NCBI GenBank assembly: GCA_963782055.1
Contig: CAWAIF010000003.1
Span: 2,560,001 to 2,624,000 of the forward strand
Length of the DNA: 64,000 nucleotides
Reading direction: 5' to 3'
From: an uncultured delta proteobacterium
GTDB taxonomy: Bacteria > Myxococcota_A > Polyangia > Polyangiales > Polyangiaceae
Shown in pieces: positions 9,633 to 17,924 of the stretch. Position 1 is the stretch's first letter. The number at the start of each line of letters is the position of its first letter. A model generated the notes under the pieces. That model did not search any database, had not been told where the DNA came from, and saw nothing but the letters and a program-made list of their open reading frames with translations. The position numbers and the translations under genes are program-made.

Positions 9633-10336
9633 GAACCGTGCAATCTGCACGCAAGTCGCGCGCGCGCGGCCTCACGCTGGTGGAGGTGCTCGTCGCCCTC
9701 GCGGTGCTCAGCATGATCGGCGTGCTCCTCTACGGCGCCTTCGACTCCATGGCCCGCGGCAAGAAGGCGGAGGCCATCCGCGGCGACCGCGCGCGGGAGG
9801 GGCGCGCCGCGGTGCTGCGCATCGCCCGCGATCTCTCCAGCGCGTTCCTCTCCGCCCACAACCCCAACAACATCGCCCTGCAGACGCGCGTCGTCGCCTT
9901 CATCGGGCAGAGCGCCTCCCCCTTCGACCGCGTGGACTTCTCCGGCTTCGCCCACCAGCGGCTGGTGCGCGACAGCAAGGAGTCGGACCAGGCGGAGGTC
10001 GGCTACTTCGTCGTGCCGGACCCCGACGTGGACGGCAAAAACGACCTGGTGCGCCGGGAGCAGACCCCCGCCGACATGGAGCCCAGGCGCGGCGGCGTGG
10101 TCAACGTCCTCTGCGAGGACGTGGAGAGCTTCGACCTGCACTACCTCGACCCGACGACGGGCCAGTGGCTGGAGACGTGGGACTCCACCCAGGTCACCGC
10201 GCAGCAGAACCGCCTGCCGCTGGAGGTGCGCATCACCCTCACCCTCGCGCACGTGCCCGCCGGTCTCGAGCCCACCTACATGACCAAGGTCATGCTCCCC
10301 ATCCAGCAACCCCTCTCCTTCGGGATCCCGCAATGA
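9629..10336 (+). CDS. gspJ: Minor pseudopilin J
   Basis: RG|LTLVEVLVAL; WDS...RLPLEVRITL C-terminus. Confidence 0.8.
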   Translation: MRTVQSARKSRARGLTLVEVLVALAVLSMIGVLLYGAFDSMARGKKAEAIRGDRAREGRAAVLRIARDLSSAFLSAHNPNNIALQTRVVAFIGQSASPFDRVDFSGFAHQRLVRDSKESDQAEVGYFVVPDPDVDGKNDLVRREQTPADMEPRRGGVVNVLCEDVESFDLHYLDPTTGQWLETWDSTQVTAQQNRLPLEVRITLTLAHVPAGLEPTYMTKVMLPIQQPLSFGIPQ

Positions 10337-13342: not shown

Positions 13343-13926
13343 TGGCCGCCGCGATCTTCGAGCGCATGGGCCTCAACGCCCGCGAGCAGCGCCTCGCCCA
13401 GGTGCTGATCATCGTCTTCGGCGTGATGCTCTTCTTGGGCCTGCCGCTCGGCCTGGAGTCGTACGTGGCGAGCAAGCGCTCGAGCAACGACGAGCTCCGC
13501 CAGGCGCTGGAGGACGTGCAGACCGGGCGGGCCGCGGTGCGCGACCGCGAGGCCAAGAAGGAGGCGATCGCCATGCGCTACCAGAGCAAGGCGCCGGAGC
13601 TCGCCGGGTTCCTGGAGCAGGAGGCGCGCAAGCAGAAGCTGGAGGTGACCGACTCGGTCGACCGCCCGCCGGTGCCGCACGGCAAGCGCTACACCGAGCG
13701 CAGCACCATCATCCACCTGAAGAAGGCGGGGCTGCTCGCCATCAGTGAGTTCATGCAGTCCATCGAGCAGTCGGAGAGCCCCATCTCGATCAACCGGCTG
13801 AACATCCGCAAGCGCACCGGCGAGCCGGACTCGTACGACGTGGAGATGGGCGTCTCGGCGTACGACCGCGTGGAGAAGCCCGCCGCCGCGGCGTCCTCCG
13901 CCGCGCCGAAGGGGGGCAAGCCGTGA
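13339..13926 (+). CDS. gspM: Type II secretion protein M
   Basis: LNAREQRL followed by a TM segment; GTGA overlap with gspL; position in operon. Confidence 0.72.
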   Translation: MMAAAIFERMGLNAREQRLAQVLIIVFGVMLFLGLPLGLESYVASKRSSNDELRQALEDVQTGRAAVRDREAKKEAIAMRYQSKAPELAGFLEQEARKQKLEVTDSVDRPPVPHGKRYTERSTIIHLKKAGLLAISEFMQSIEQSESPISINRLNIRKRTGEPDSYDVEMGVSAYDRVEKPAAAASSAAPKGGKP

Positions 13927-14972
13927 CCGAGCAGATGAAGCGCTGGGCCAAGTGGGTCGGCTACCCGACCTTCTACCTGCTCTCCTTCGCGCTCTTTCTC
14001 TCGCTCGTCTTCCCGTACGACAAGCTGAAGGAGCGCATCGTCACCTCCTTCAACGCGCAGCAGAAGGCGGCGGGCGCGCAGCAGGAGCTCCACATCGACA
14101 CGATGGGCTGGTACTGGTTCACCGGCGTGCGCGCGAAGGGCATCCGCCTGGTGAGCGCCCCGCAGGAGCCGGGCAAGCCGCCGGCGGAGATCCACATCGA
14201 CGAGGCGCGCATCAAGATGGGCCTCTTCGCGTCGCTGGTCGGCAAGCGCGACGTCACCTTCCACCTGGACGCGCTGGGCGGCACCATCGACGGCGAGTAC
14301 CAGGAGAGCAAGGACGAGCGCGACGTCGACGTCACCCTGGATGGCGTGCACCTGGACCAGGTGGACGCGCTGAGCCAGGCGATCGGCCTGCCGGTGCAGG
14401 GGACCATCGCCGGGACCATCAAGCTGCAGATGCCGGAGGGCAAGGCCTCGAAGGGCAACGGCACGATCGACCTGGAGGGGACCGACGTGGCCATCGGCGA
14501 CGGCAAGGCGAAGCTGAAGGGCGCGCTGGAGATGCCCAAGCTCGTCGTCGGCGCGCTCACCTTCAACGCCGAGGCCAAGGACGGGGTGCTGAAGATCACC
14601 AAGTTCTCCGCGGGCGGAAAGGACCTGGAGCTCAACGGCGAGGGCAAGGTGCAGATGCGCGAGCTCGCCAACGAGAGCAGCCTGGACGTGAACCTCAAGT
14701 TCAAGATCAACGACGCGTTCCGGGGCAAGAGCGAGATCACCAAGAACCTGTTCGGCGCGCCCGGCTCGCCGAAGGGCGGCGACATCGAGCTGTTCGTTCC
14801 GGAGATGAAGCGGGCGAAGCGGCCGGACGGGTTCTACTCGTTCCAGGTGCGCGGGCTGCTGGGGCACCTGCAGTTCCAGCCGATGCCGAACTTCGTGGAG
14901 CCGGGAGGGGGCGGCGCGGCGGGGGCGGCGGGGAGGCCGCCGAGGATGGGGGCGACGCCCAGGTTCCCCTGA
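13923..14972 (+). CDS. gspN: Type II secretion protein N (deltaproteobacterial type)
   Basis: N-terminal TM ending FPYDKLKERI; beta-rich body; last gene of the operon. Confidence 0.75.
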   Translation: MTEQMKRWAKWVGYPTFYLLSFALFLSLVFPYDKLKERIVTSFNAQQKAAGAQQELHIDTMGWYWFTGVRAKGIRLVSAPQEPGKPPAEIHIDEARIKMGLFASLVGKRDVTFHLDALGGTIDGEYQESKDERDVDVTLDGVHLDQVDALSQAIGLPVQGTIAGTIKLQMPEGKASKGNGTIDLEGTDVAIGDGKAKLKGALEMPKLVVGALTFNAEAKDGVLKITKFSAGGKDLELNGEGKVQMRELANESSLDVNLKFKINDAFRGKSEITKNLFGAPGSPKGGDIELFVPEMKRAKRPDGFYSFQVRGLLGHLQFQPMPNFVEPGGGGAAGAAGRPPRMGATPRFP

Positions 14973-14996
14973 GGGAGGGGAAGGGGGGCCCCTCCT

Positions 14997-15146
14997 GGCG
15001 CCATGCTCGGGCTCGTGCTCGCCTTCTCGCGTGCCGCCCGTGTGTGCATGATGCAAGGATTCCGGCACGCGAGAAGGCTTGCGCGCGAGCCCTGCGCGTG
15101 GCGCCTCCTCCCCTCGGTGTCGCGCTCCGCGCGCCACACGGGGAGG
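14997..15146 (+). other. Gene-less structured element: long hairpin plus adjacent triloop hairpin
   Basis: Perfect 16-bp IR 15021-15036/15063-15078, extended by two 10-bp stems with TC/(T)TGC internal loops; second hairpin 15107-15146. Confidence 0.75.
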
Positions 15147-15175
15147 ATGGTGCGCGATCGGCCACGTGAGAGAAC

Positions 15176-15253
15176 GGGAAGGGGAAAGGGGACGGGGAAG
15201 GGGGACGGGGAAGGGGGACGGGGAAGGGGACGGGGGACGGGGAAGGAGAGGGG
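15176..15253 (+). repeat. Purine-rich GGGGAA/GGGGAC degenerate tandem tract
   Basis: Directly visible; many G4-G5 runs. Confidence 0.9.
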
Positions 15254-15292
15254 CTCTCGCTCGGGGGAGGGGATAGCGATGCACTCCCCACA

Positions 15293-15347
15293 CGCCCTCG
15301 TGCTCGCGCCCGCGCCCGCGCCCGCGCTCGCGCTCGCGCTCGCGCTC
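15293..15347 (+). repeat. (GCGCCC/GCGCTC)n hexamer tract
   Basis: Directly visible tandem hexamers. Confidence 0.9.
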
Positions 15348-15384
15348 CTCCGTTGGCGCGGAAGGTGAAGGGGGAAGGAGCGGG

Positions 15385-15590
15385 GAGGGGGCTGTCGCTC
15401 GGGGGGAGGGGATGGTCCCGCCGTGCTCGGAGCTGTCGAGGCCAGGCCGTGCTCGCCGTCCTCGGGCGCTTCGCGCCCTCCGGGCGGCTGCGCGCGGTGC
15501 GCGCTTCGCGCGCAGCCTCGACAGCTCCTGCGCGCGGCGGGTGTGGGCTTGGGCCCCCCGCGCGCGGTGCGCGGGGCGTTGCCGAGGAGC
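15385..15590 (+). ncRNA. Conserved structured leader 1 (RNA or ssDNA structure) upstream of four-helix-bundle gene 1
   Basis: Homologous to 16400-16655 on the minus strand; 14-bp stem 15429-15442/15515-15528 covaries with leader 2. Confidence 0.6.
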
Positions 15591-15595
15591 GCGTG

Positions 15596-15922
15596 ATGAA
15601 CCTTCGAATCTATCCCGTGGTGCTGGAGCTGGTGCGCGAGGTCGGGCCGCGGTTGCGGGAGCTCGGGCGGCACGATCCGGATCTCGCGCGGCAGTGCCGG
15701 CGGGCGCTGGCGAGCGTGCCGCTCAACGTCGCGGAGGGCGCGTACGCGCGCGGGCGAAACAAGCAGGCGCGCTACCACACCGCGCTGGGCTCGCTGCGCG
15801 AGACGCAGGCGTGCTTCGAGGTGGCGGCGGCGCTCGGCTACATGCCGGAGCTGGAGGCGGCGCTCGAGGCGCGCTTCCGGCACGTGCTGGGAACGCTGGT
15901 GCGGCTGGCGGGCGCGCACTGA
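15596..15922 (+). CDS. Four-helix-bundle protein (23S rRNA IVP / Avd-like family), 108 aa
   Basis: Signature LARQCRRALASVPLNVAEG...ALGSLRET...LGY; RBS GAGGAG at 15584-15589. Confidence 0.85.
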   Translation: MNLRIYPVVLELVREVGPRLRELGRHDPDLARQCRRALASVPLNVAEGAYARGRNKQARYHTALGSLRETQACFEVAAALGYMPELEAALEARFRHVLGTLVRLAGAH

Positions 15923-15939
15923 GGCCCGGCCGCAGGCCC

Positions 15940-15973
15940 GGCGGGCGCGATGTCCTGTCTCATCGCGCCCGCC
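15940..15973. terminator. GC-rich hairpin between the two convergent four-helix-bundle genes
   Basis: Perfect 13-bp IR GGCGGGCGCGATG/CATCGCGCCCGCC with 8-nt loop; no U-tract, so the terminator role is uncertain. Confidence 0.45.
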
Positions 15974-15985
15974 CGGTTCCGGCCA

Positions 15986-16071
15986 CGCGCTCGCGCCCGC
16001 GCTCGCCCTCGCGCTCGCCCCCGCGCCCGCCCTCGCGCTCGCGACCGCCCTCACGCCCCCGCCCCCGCGCC
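15986..16071 (+). repeat. (GCGCYC/GCCCYC)n degenerate hexamer tract
   Basis: Directly visible; abuts the stop codon of gene 2. Confidence 0.88.
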
Positions 16072-16395
16072 TCAGCGCGCGACCACGAGGCGGACCAGCG
16101 TGCCGAGCACGTGGTCCACGCGGTCCCGCAGCCCGGCCTCGAGCCCGGGCAAGTAGCCGAGCGCCGCGGCGACCTCGAAGCAGGCCAGCACCTCGCGCAG
16201 CGATCCCTGCGCGGTGTGATACCTCGCCGCGCGATTCCGCCCGCGCGAGTACATCCCCTCGGCCACGTTGAGCGGCGCGCTCGCCAGCGCCCGCCGGCAC
16301 TGGCGCGCGAGATTCGGATCATGCCGCTCGAGCTCCCGCACGAGAGGTGCCAGCGTCCGCACGAGCTCCAGCAACACAGGATAGATACGCAACAT
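16072..16395 (-). CDS. Four-helix-bundle protein (23S rRNA IVP / Avd-like family), 107 aa
   Basis: LARQCRRALASAPLNVAEG...QGSLREV...LGY; about 75% identical to 15596-15922 by manual alignment; RBS AAGGAG. Confidence 0.85.
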   Translation of the reverse strand: MLRIYPVLLELVRTLAPLVRELERHDPNLARQCRRALASAPLNVAEGMYSRGRNRAARYHTAQGSLREVLACFEVAAALGYLPGLEAGLRDRVDHVLGTLVRLVVAR

Positions 16396-16399
16396 CGTT

Positions 16400-16655
16400 C
16401 GACTCCTTGCATGCGCCCGCGCACCCTCGCGCGGGGGGCGAACGCCCAAGCCCGCCGCGCGCAGGAGTCGGCAAGGCTGCGCGCGGAGCGCGCACCGCGC
16501 GCAGCCGCCCGGAGCCGCGCGCAGGTCGCGCGCCGCGTCCATCGTTCACCGAGGCGCACGCGCGGCCGAGCACGGCGAGGACGGCGAGCACGGCCCGGCC
16601 TTGCCGACTCCGAGCACGGCGGGACGATGACCTCCCCCCCGAGCGAGCCCCCTCC
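16400..16655 (-). ncRNA. Conserved structured leader 2 upstream of four-helix-bundle gene 2
   Basis: Homologous to leader 1; 14-bp stem 16464-16477/16598-16611; carries an extra inner module. Confidence 0.6.
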
Positions 16656-16659
16656 TCTC

Positions 16660-16740
16660 CCGCCCGCGCCCGCGCCCGCGCTCGCCCCCGCGCTCGCCCC
16701 CGCGCCCGCGCCCGCACTCGCGCCCGCGCCCGCGCCCGCG
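16660..16740 (+). repeat. (GCGCCC/GCGCTC)n hexamer tract
   Basis: Directly visible. Confidence 0.9.
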
Positions 16741-16870
16741 GAGGGGAAAGGGAAAGGAGAAGGGGAAAGGGGAAAGGAGAAGGGGAAGGGGAAAGGAGAA
16801 GGGAGAAGGGAAAGGAGATGGGGAAAGGAGAAGGGGAAGGGAGAAGGGGAAGGGGAAGGGGGGAGGGGAA
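16741..16870 (+). repeat. Near-pure purine tract, (GGAGAA/GGGGAA)n
   Basis: About 130 nt with a single pyrimidine. Confidence 0.92.
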
Positions 16871-16977
16871 GCGTGCTTCGAGGTCGCTCCGGCGCTCGGC
16901 TTCATGCCGTGGCTGGGGGCTCGAGGCGCGCGCTCCCACCACATGCTCGAGGCGTCGCCCGGTCTGCCGGTGCTCAC
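16871..16977 (+). pseudogene. Degenerate 3' fragment of a third four-helix-bundle gene
   Basis: Translates ACFEVAPALGFMPWL... versus ACFEVAAALGYMPEL in gene 1; nucleotide similarity to 15809-15920. Confidence 0.75.
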
Positions 16978-17055
16978 GGATCGCTGTCCTGCACCGGGCT
17001 TCAACGACCCGCCGCACACCGTTAGCATGCGGACCTGCGAACTCTCGACCGGCCA

Positions 17056-17135
17056 CCCCTTCTCCGTCTCCCTTCTCCTTCTCCTTCTCCTTCTCCTTCT
17101 CCCTCCTCCTCCCCCTCCTGCCCCGCACTCCCCCC
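17056..17135 (+). repeat. Pyrimidine tract, (TTCTCC)n, complementary to the repeat unit of 16741-16870
   Basis: Directly visible; TTCTCC is the reverse complement of GGAGAA. Confidence 0.88.
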
Positions 17136-17924
17136 ATGCCCAAACCCAAACTCCTCGCCGCGGTCATCCACGCCCCCCCTCTCCCCGGCTCCCCCCGCGC
17201 CTGGACGATGCCGCGCGTCCTCGCGCAGGTCGCCCGCGACGCGTCGCTCCTCGCGCGCGCCGGCTTCGAACGCATCGTCGTCGAGAACTTCGGCGACGCG
17301 CCCTTCTTCGCCGCGCGCGTGCCGCCGGTCACCGTCGCCGCGCTCACCGCGTGCGTGCTGCAGGCGCGCGCCGCGGCGCCGGACGCGATGGTCGGCGTCA
17401 ACGTGCTGCGCAACGACGCCGAGGCCGCCATCTCCATCGCCGCGGTGACCGGCGCGTCCTTCGTCCGCGTCAACGTCCACGCCGGGGCGCGCGTCACCGA
17501 CCAGGGCGTCGTCCAGGGCCGCGCCGCCGAGACGATGCGCCTTCGCGCGTCGCTCGCCGCGCGAGCGGCGGTCTGGGCGGACGTGGACGTCAAGCACTCC
17601 GCCCCCCTCGGCGCTCGGCCGGTCGAGGACGAGGCGCGTGACGTCGCGCTGCGCGGCCTGGCCGACGCCGTCCTAGTCACCGGTAGCGGCACCGGGCGTG
17701 CGGTGGACCTGGGCAAGCTCGGCCGCGTGCGCGCCAGCCTGCCGCCGCGCACGCAGGTGCTCGCCGCCAGCGGCGCCACCGCCGCCTCGCTGCGCGACCT
17801 GCTCGCCGCGTGCGACGGCGTGGTCGTGGGGAGCGCCCTGAAGGTGGGCGGCAGGGCCGGGGCGCCCGTCGACCCAGCCCGCGCCCGCCGCTTCGTGGCC
17901 GCTTTCCGCCGCGCTGCGGGCTAG
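17136..17924 (+). CDS. BtpA/SgcQ family TIM-barrel protein
   Basis: IHAPPLPGSP, VENFGDAPF, GVNVLRND, ADVDVKHS, VTGSGTG motifs. Confidence 0.9.
   Translation: MPKPKLLAAVIHAPPLPGSPRAWTMPRVLAQVARDASLLARAGFERIVVENFGDAPFFAARVPPVTVAALTACVLQARAAAPDAMVGVNVLRNDAEAAISIAAVTGASFVRVNVHAGARVTDQGVVQGRAAETMRLRASLAARAAVWADVDVKHSAPLGARPVEDEARDVALRGLADAVLVTGSGTGRAVDLGKLGRVRASLPPRTQVLAASGATAASLRDLLAACDGVVVGSALKVGGRAGAPVDPARARRFVAAFRRAAG

Follow-up and report, generated by a model that had tools for sequence, protein, structure and literature searches.

We analyzed a stretch of 64,000 nucleotides (hereafter the window) from the genome of an uncultured delta proteobacterium of the family Polyangiaceae (GenBank assembly GCA_963782055.1, contig CAWAIF010000003.1, positions 2,560,001 to 2,624,000). 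It holds two convergent genes for Avd-like four-helix-bundle proteins of family PF05635, with one long palindromic leader before each gene. Judged from base patterns and predicted folding, each leader is probably a fold-back promoter that works on single-stranded DNA (ssDNA) with the housekeeping (sigma70-type) RNA polymerase, and it belongs to a multicopy cassette whose cargo is the Avd-like gene. The predicted geometry is that of a pre-melted sigma70 promoter, in which the conserved unpaired bases would be the -10 element. Fork junctions paired as far as -12 are bound by RNA polymerase, which recognizes -11A and -7T in the unpaired strand (PMC3753650). The parts of the two leaders, in window positions, are the following.

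15397..15561, minus strand (template): fold-back of leader 1, from folding and logo; on this strand it comprises a closing stem, an unpaired bubble from -11 to -1, a spacer stem with a GA/GCA internal loop, a 14-bp stem with the -35 and, at the far end, a three-way junction bearing two further modules and two GAA triloops
15412..15417, minus strand: predicted -10 of leader 1 (GACCAT); -12 at 15417 pairs with 15541
15434..15439, minus strand: predicted -35 of leader 1 (TCGACA), with a 16-nt spacer
near 15553, plus strand: predicted start for leader 1, from the geometry
16430..16645, plus strand (template): fold-back of leader 2, from folding and logo
16601..16606, plus strand: predicted -35 of leader 2 (TTGCCG)
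16623..16628, plus strand: predicted -10 of leader 2 (GACGAT)
near 16439, minus strand: putative start for leader 2

Conservation of the fold

The central stems of leader 1 (15429-15442/15515-15528) and leader 2 (16464-16477/16598-16611) are gapless 14-bp duplexes with every position paired, and they differ from each other at four positions, each of them compensated. The original prediction for this region had stated as much from the letters, and its count of a nested internal-loop module (two copies in leader 1, three in leader 2) agrees with our strict count; the numbers become three and four when the GCCGTCCTC/TCCGGGCGGC variant is included. RNA folding gave z-scores of -3.2 for leader 1 and -2.8 for leader 2.

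Eighty upstream regions were examined, 18 from this genome and 62 from relatives, and the core was present in 64. Unless another number is given, counts for leaders refer to 54 distinct ones, 12 from this genome and 42 from 35 relative loci. A leader was admitted when at least 12 of 18 pairs were Watson-Crick, so the pairing percentages of the inner stems are inflated, including the 1053 of 1134 Watson-Crick cells in the stem columns; the -12 and -11 columns were kept out of admission. When changes were placed on a tree built from the downstream proteins, those at partner columns shared a branch 149 times; 10,000 re-pairings of the columns on this tree gave 47 on average and 91 at most. The result bears out the earlier suggestion that the structure is under selection. 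Taken by themselves, the two window copies could reflect one template-switch event, and template switching between arms can also produce compensated changes. Selection is nevertheless favored, since the internal loop, a T.G/T.T column and the bubble are unpaired in all leaders. The leader fold is a real, conserved structure. In line with the original prediction, it has no match in Rfam: no covariance model scored above its gathering threshold in the window or at 20 loci scanned, and at E<=5 the window gave chance miRNA-type matches alone, none of them on the leaders.

The fold also shows strand polarity. Coding-strand triloops were TNC in 64 cases and GNA in four, that is, 64 of the 68 polar triloops are GNA on the template strand, whereas random genome windows gave a TNC:GNA ratio of 93:80; among the matches listed from the pattern scan described below it was 83:1. 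One GNRA and no UUCG tetraloop were found on the coding strand, and a UUCG register considered for the stems was dropped, as these yield TTC triloops. On the template strand the module is a GNA opposite a GA, and mismatches on the coding strand were A.C in 27 cases versus G.T in 13. GCGNAGC is described as an unusually stable DNA hairpin that occurs at ssDNA priming sites and phage N4 promoters, its RNA analogue, as tested, being much weaker (PMC13037366). A fold built for the template strand of the gene fits these features better than one built for RNA. GC skew was weak, too weak to give the orientation of the leaders relative to replication.

Predicted promoter elements on the template strand

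The template-strand logo reads TTGAC at positions 3-7, a spacer of 16 nucleotides and nAnnnT. Taken as the reverse complement of the 5' arm, position -11 is A in 98% and -7 is T in 93% of the leaders. The coding 3' arm contains TTGAC too, but at the matching columns A and T each reach only 4%. Position -12 is Watson-Crick paired across the fold in 45 of the 54 leaders (CG 23, GC 12, AT 10), and -11 in 0 of 54. An additional stem closes the bubble, with a mean of -13.6 kcal/mol versus -9.4 for shuffled and -9.9 for cross-locus flanks; it beats shuffled flanks in 50 leaders and cross-locus flanks in 41. Unconstrained DNA folding of both window template strands recovers the bubble. With the module in it, the spacer is 16 nt on one strand and 17 nt on the other, and the module may serve to tune this length. 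All 17 structural matches in this genome are these leaders; conserved codons for LRIY lie 56-62 nt downstream of each, with a ribosome-binding site in between.

Based on these patterns we infer polymerase use, start site, silence of the duplex, and roles for the module, the gene pair and the protein, as well as a source of ssDNA, as follows. Once single-stranded, the template strand of the gene would fold back on itself. Its 3' arm would supply the non-template elements, the -35 as duplex and the -10 paired at -12 and single-stranded from -11, while the 5' arm would act as template and the further stem would close the bubble. Transcription would begin about 43 nt before the ATG, giving an mRNA that keeps the ribosome-binding site and lacks the hairpin. 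The GNA mini-hairpins and GA/GNA internal loops would stabilize the fold on the template strand alone. When the DNA is duplex, its coding strand offers a -35 and no -10, so the gene is expected to be off. The unit, made up of a hexamer array, the leader and the Avd-like gene, is a multicopy and patchily distributed cassette, and in a convergent pair one gene would fire whichever strand is exposed. Candidate sources of ssDNA are ComEC uptake, conjugation, a transposition intermediate and replication gaps; ComEC is present in the genome.

The cassette and its genomic site

This genome holds 18 complete leaders, each ahead of a four-helix-bundle gene, and 19 PF05635 matches in all. Behind the leaders 13 of the 18 ORFs are full length, and the median dN/dS is 0.27 among 11 ORFs passing a filter, a set that omits two full-length ORFs excluded by a filter artefact. 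A tandem hexamer array lies within 400 bp upstream of all 18 leaders versus 0.6% of random positions. One copy elsewhere in the genome is 99% identical to gene 1 and its leader. In the four same-genus genomes that carry btpA, gspN adjoins it in every case; therefore the stretch between these two genes in the window (14973-17135) is additional DNA in this genome. Its junctions are unmappable because the congeners are only about 60% identical in protein. The features of this stretch other than the leaders are listed here.

13923-14972: gspN
14973..17135: extra stretch between gspN and btpA, absent in 4/4 congeners
14975..15156, plus strand: REP-like palindromic repeat with the same internal-loop module and without the -35 stem; 47 genome copies
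15168..15352: hexamer arrays upstream of leader 1, of GGGGAA/GGGGAC and then GCGCCC/GCGCTC type
15584-15589, plus strand: Shine-Dalgarno-like GAGGAG of gene 1
15596..15922, plus strand: gene 1, for a 108-aa four-helix-bundle protein of PF05635/TIGR02436 with an Avd-like fold
15923..16071: stretch separating the convergent genes, with a short hairpin and then a GCGCCC-type hexamer array
16072..16395, minus strand: gene 2, for a 107-aa four-helix-bundle protein with 77% identity to that of gene 1
16647..16867: hexamer arrays upstream of leader 2
16871..16931, plus strand: third four-helix-bundle gene, present as a remnant with 82% identity to 15809-15874
17136-17924: btpA

Hexamer arrays at 16770-16828 and 17057-17115, one purine and the other pyrimidine, form an inverted repeat around the third-gene remnant.

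The products of genes 1 and 2 both score above the cut-offs of the PF05635 and TIGR02436 models. The predicted structure has four helices (pLDDT 90) and compares at TM 0.76-0.80 with 2GSC (Xcc0516) and 2RLD (BT_0352) and at about 0.7 with the Avd of a diversity-generating retroelement (4DWL), although in this fold comparison no structure reached E<=0.001. The product is basic, with a pI of about 10 without its first residues. A four-copy model scored 0.56 versus 0.01 for the best control (runs 0.56, 0.63, 0.20), with contact agreement of at least 80% and partner pLDDT of at least 79; 21 of 30 solved pairs attained the mark for this score, whereas 0 of 23 single chains did. Since like complexes have already been solved, the modelled homo-oligomer shows likeness only.

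Within the order, 72 of 151 genomes (our own included) had protein matches, from 0 to 31 or more per genome. Adjacent pairs at 45 relative loci were convergent in 13 cases, tandem in three and divergent in one, a sample with many short contigs and with at least one locus entered twice. At G000:C3:3700690-3700926, C3:2533501-2533737 and C2:146950-147162 a second subfamily of four-helix-bundle genes, divergent in sequence, is paired convergently with the first, and partner genes in relatives that resemble it have an upstream hairpin of a different kind. At G000:C3:5208584-5212900 a cassette copy is interrupted by an insertion of about 4 kb, one end of which, in our own reading, resembles a group II intron. 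Leader and gene are directly duplicated at G000:C3:6974707-6975964, with 742-bp spacing and identical proteins.

The REP-like repeat at the left of the extra stretch is a 175-bp palindrome found in the window and at 46 other sites, without a four-helix-bundle gene. The module it has in common with the leaders is a shared structural brick, not a gene-specific operator. The repeat also lies within 450 bp upstream, on the same strand, of eight of 13 DUF559 genes examined; these genes have a conserved long inverted repeat of their own across the gene start, and together with the REP-like repeat they look like a parallel cassette.

The same core outside this gene

A pattern scan of a species collection, with part of the -35 fixed and the -10 left free, gave at least 121 stretches. 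Pairing was present in 106 of 123 species-collection and 7 of 17 viral matches among those listed, to which the next counts also refer. They came from Alphaproteobacteria, Acidobacteriota, Actinomycetota and others, and those with a four-helix-bundle gene included Myxococcales and Nannocystaceae records. In 108 pattern-first matches, mostly away from this gene, -11 was A in 78% and -7 was T in 75%; -12 was paired in 83 and -11 in 12. By locus context, assigned by clustering, 44 of 111 loci lie beside mobile-element genes, six precede a four-helix-bundle gene and 61 are unclassified. The mobile neighbors were IS110 (16), IS3-like (9), integrative and conjugative elements (ICE; 7), IS21 (6), IS256 (4) and resolvase (2), and three were read as transposase without a Pfam match. 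Pfam named 14 of the longest downstream ORFs at 97 matches; many of these ORFs are shadow frames in GC-rich DNA. In four of five alphaproteobacterial genomes that carry the core, for which no completeness is stated, there was no PF05635 match.

In a Tn4371-like ICE (L199) the core, at 10001-10153, overlaps the start annotated for a lytic transglycosylase gene upstream of a DUF3363 relaxase; the true start may lie further downstream. The IS110-family elements at L200 (10030-10110) and L202 have the core in their 3' non-coding region, where bridge RNAs or seekRNAs are expected. A bridge/seekRNA reading of these copies was set aside, as the variable bubble shows the same -11A/-7T and loop polarity. 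The IS110 core might promote transcription that crosses the junction of a single-stranded circle.

Alternative explanations

Several results weigh against a fold-back promoter. The -35 elements of this genome (TCGACA, TTGCCG, TTGCGG) and its -12 (G) are off-consensus, and as a duplex these bases amount to a complete promoter facing outward. Nearest-neighbor DNA energies slightly favor the coding over the template strand (-60.4 vs -57.1 for leader 1, -79.6 vs -78.4 for leader 2), and the T.G column (T.G 47/54, T.T 7/54) would form a wobble pair in RNA and be mismatched on the template strand. The cassette is chromosomal, no route to single-strandedness was identified, and no Y1 transposase was found. 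An alignment with the class 2 ssDNA promoter hairpin of plasmid F, the one class compared, found no sequence homology. The strongest contrary result is polarity in the Tn4371-like ICE, where the outward duplex direction reads the transglycosylase-relaxase genes and the fold-back transcript would be antisense to its neighbors.

This last result counts in favor of a rival explanation, in which the leader is a plain duplex promoter directed away from the gene, or a signal for priming the complementary strand, and does not supply the mRNA of the gene. TTGAC-N16-nAnnnT is indeed contiguous on one strand, most pattern matches listed have no recognizable sense gene downstream, and ssDNA promoters have been proposed as replication primers as well (PMC12672017). 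A duplex promoter, however, has no need of a covarying -12 pair, a strictly unpaired -11, a closing stem or GNA loops on one strand, and the position of all 17 structural matches of this genome before LRIY codons and a ribosome-binding site speaks for the gene; we regard this explanation as unlikely. Slightly less probable, in our judgment, is a REP-like or attC-like single-stranded end for a recombinase acting in trans, with the promoter-like bases incidental. In convergent pairs the leaders do lie outermost, as inverted ends would, the module recurs in the 47-copy repeat that precedes most of the DUF559 genes examined, and the core often neighbors mobile-element genes. Against this, no Y1/RAYT tyrosine transposase was found in the genome, which is 97% complete, neither a sharp conserved boundary nor a target duplication was seen, and the unpaired conserved bases are those of sigma70 -11 and -7 at the right distance from TTGAC.

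The original prediction had taken the leaders for structures that offer their repeated internal loops as sites to an oligomeric protein such as the downstream product; in a structured RNA leader, such binding would amount to autoregulation. The RNA fold is stable, the product is basic, Avd-like and modelled as an oligomer, and a read-through RNA would, in some relatives, have its ribosome-binding site masked by the closing stem. This part of the prediction fares poorly: the strand polarity of the loops, including the near-absence of RNA-type tetraloops, speaks against it, as does the -10 element, which it leaves unexplained. The supposed binding sites are not constant either, since inner modules number 0 to 3 per leader in this genome and are absent from 3 of its 18 leaders and from 34 of 42 in relatives, and both module and core also occur without the gene, as in the alphaproteobacterial genomes without a PF05635 match. 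We hold this explanation to be improbable; binding of the leader by the modelled oligomer may still occur as a secondary role.

Significance

A fold-back promoter would tell when PF05635 genes are expressed, and a short, alignable family with an evolutionarily kept -12/-11 junction would offer a testable model of how ssDNA promoters are built. Our literature search, which lay outside most subscription journals, found no paper connecting ssDNA promoters with PF05635 genes. A more speculative and rather doubtful proposal is that the cassettes are widespread minimal selfish elements whose sole gene is switched on by single-strandedness. Compact fold-back promoters, common to IS and ICE non-coding regions across phyla, would fire when DNA enters a cell or peels off the chromosome; with convergent twins, either strand would be sure to give expression; and the ring protein, Avd-like in fold, would act on single-stranded nucleic acid, promoting capture or spread of the cassette. 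If so, a large orphan family would gain a trigger and ssDNA promoters would extend from plasmid leading regions to chromosomes. To our knowledge, the ssDNA promoters for host RNA polymerase characterized so far all belong to a few plasmids of enterobacteria.

Comparison with known systems

The window products share family and fold with the PF05635/TIGR02436 proteins, that is, the 23S rRNA intervening-sequence ORFs, Xcc0516, BT_0352 and Avd. We know of no role for PF05635 proteins, whose structures were solved in 2006-2007. PF05635-type proteins are related to Avd (PMC10053308). Unlike intervening-sequence ORFs, the genes here are dispersed in 18 leader-bearing copies; they do not lie inside rRNA, and no Rfam rRNA match occurs in the window. 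Concerning a diversity-generating retroelement, there was no reverse transcriptase among the immediate flanking genes, the part of the genome to which this search was confined. REP, BIME and REPIN repeats are dispersed intergenic palindromes in inverted pairs with conserved mismatches, and the leaders answer to the same description; unlike those repeats, they come with a gene of their own and a promoter-like consensus.

C-GNA-G mini-hairpins on ssDNA, like those of the leaders, occur at transcription or priming sites, namely the early promoters of phage N4 and the priming hairpins of G4 and RSF1010 (PMC13037366). There the reader is a phage virion RNA polymerase or a primase, whereas the leader consensus is sigma70-like.

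The closest parallels are the ssDNA promoters of plasmids. Frpo folds so that a -10 and a -35 are rebuilt and drives early genes from transferred ssDNA (PMC9849209, PMC11541004); class 2 promoters stand before klcA and ardA, with starts mapped in pESBL and homologues in F (PMC12672017). In plasmid F, upstream of a gene annotated as antirestriction protein and taken here as klcA, the 3' arm of the template strand carries TTGCAT-N15-TAAGAT, our assignment from sequence; the -10 lies within an internal loop, CAAGGG/CCCTTG closes the stem and TNC loops occur inside. The leaders resemble class 2 of F and pESBL in the long fold-back before a gene, the template-strand -35 and -10 on the 3' arm and the -10 in a bubble. 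They differ in a shorter core, the GA/GNA module in a 16/17-nt spacer and the Avd-like cargo, and from both Frpo and class 2 in being chromosomal, multicopy and hexamer-flanked, outside a plasmid leading region. In the window the copy has gspN and btpA as its neighbors and is not in a conjugative leading region on a transferred strand, and in one ICE the polarity is apparently opposite to that expected of a leading region, given where we presume the oriT of Tn4371-like ICE to be. As with Frpo and single-strand initiation (ssi) sites, a large stem-loop stands directly before the gene, and the predicted -35 and -10 are rebuilt on the folded template strand, not the coding strand. The layout is thus the same and the sequence unalignable, so the leaders would be Frpo-like in their working, yet outside the described classes.
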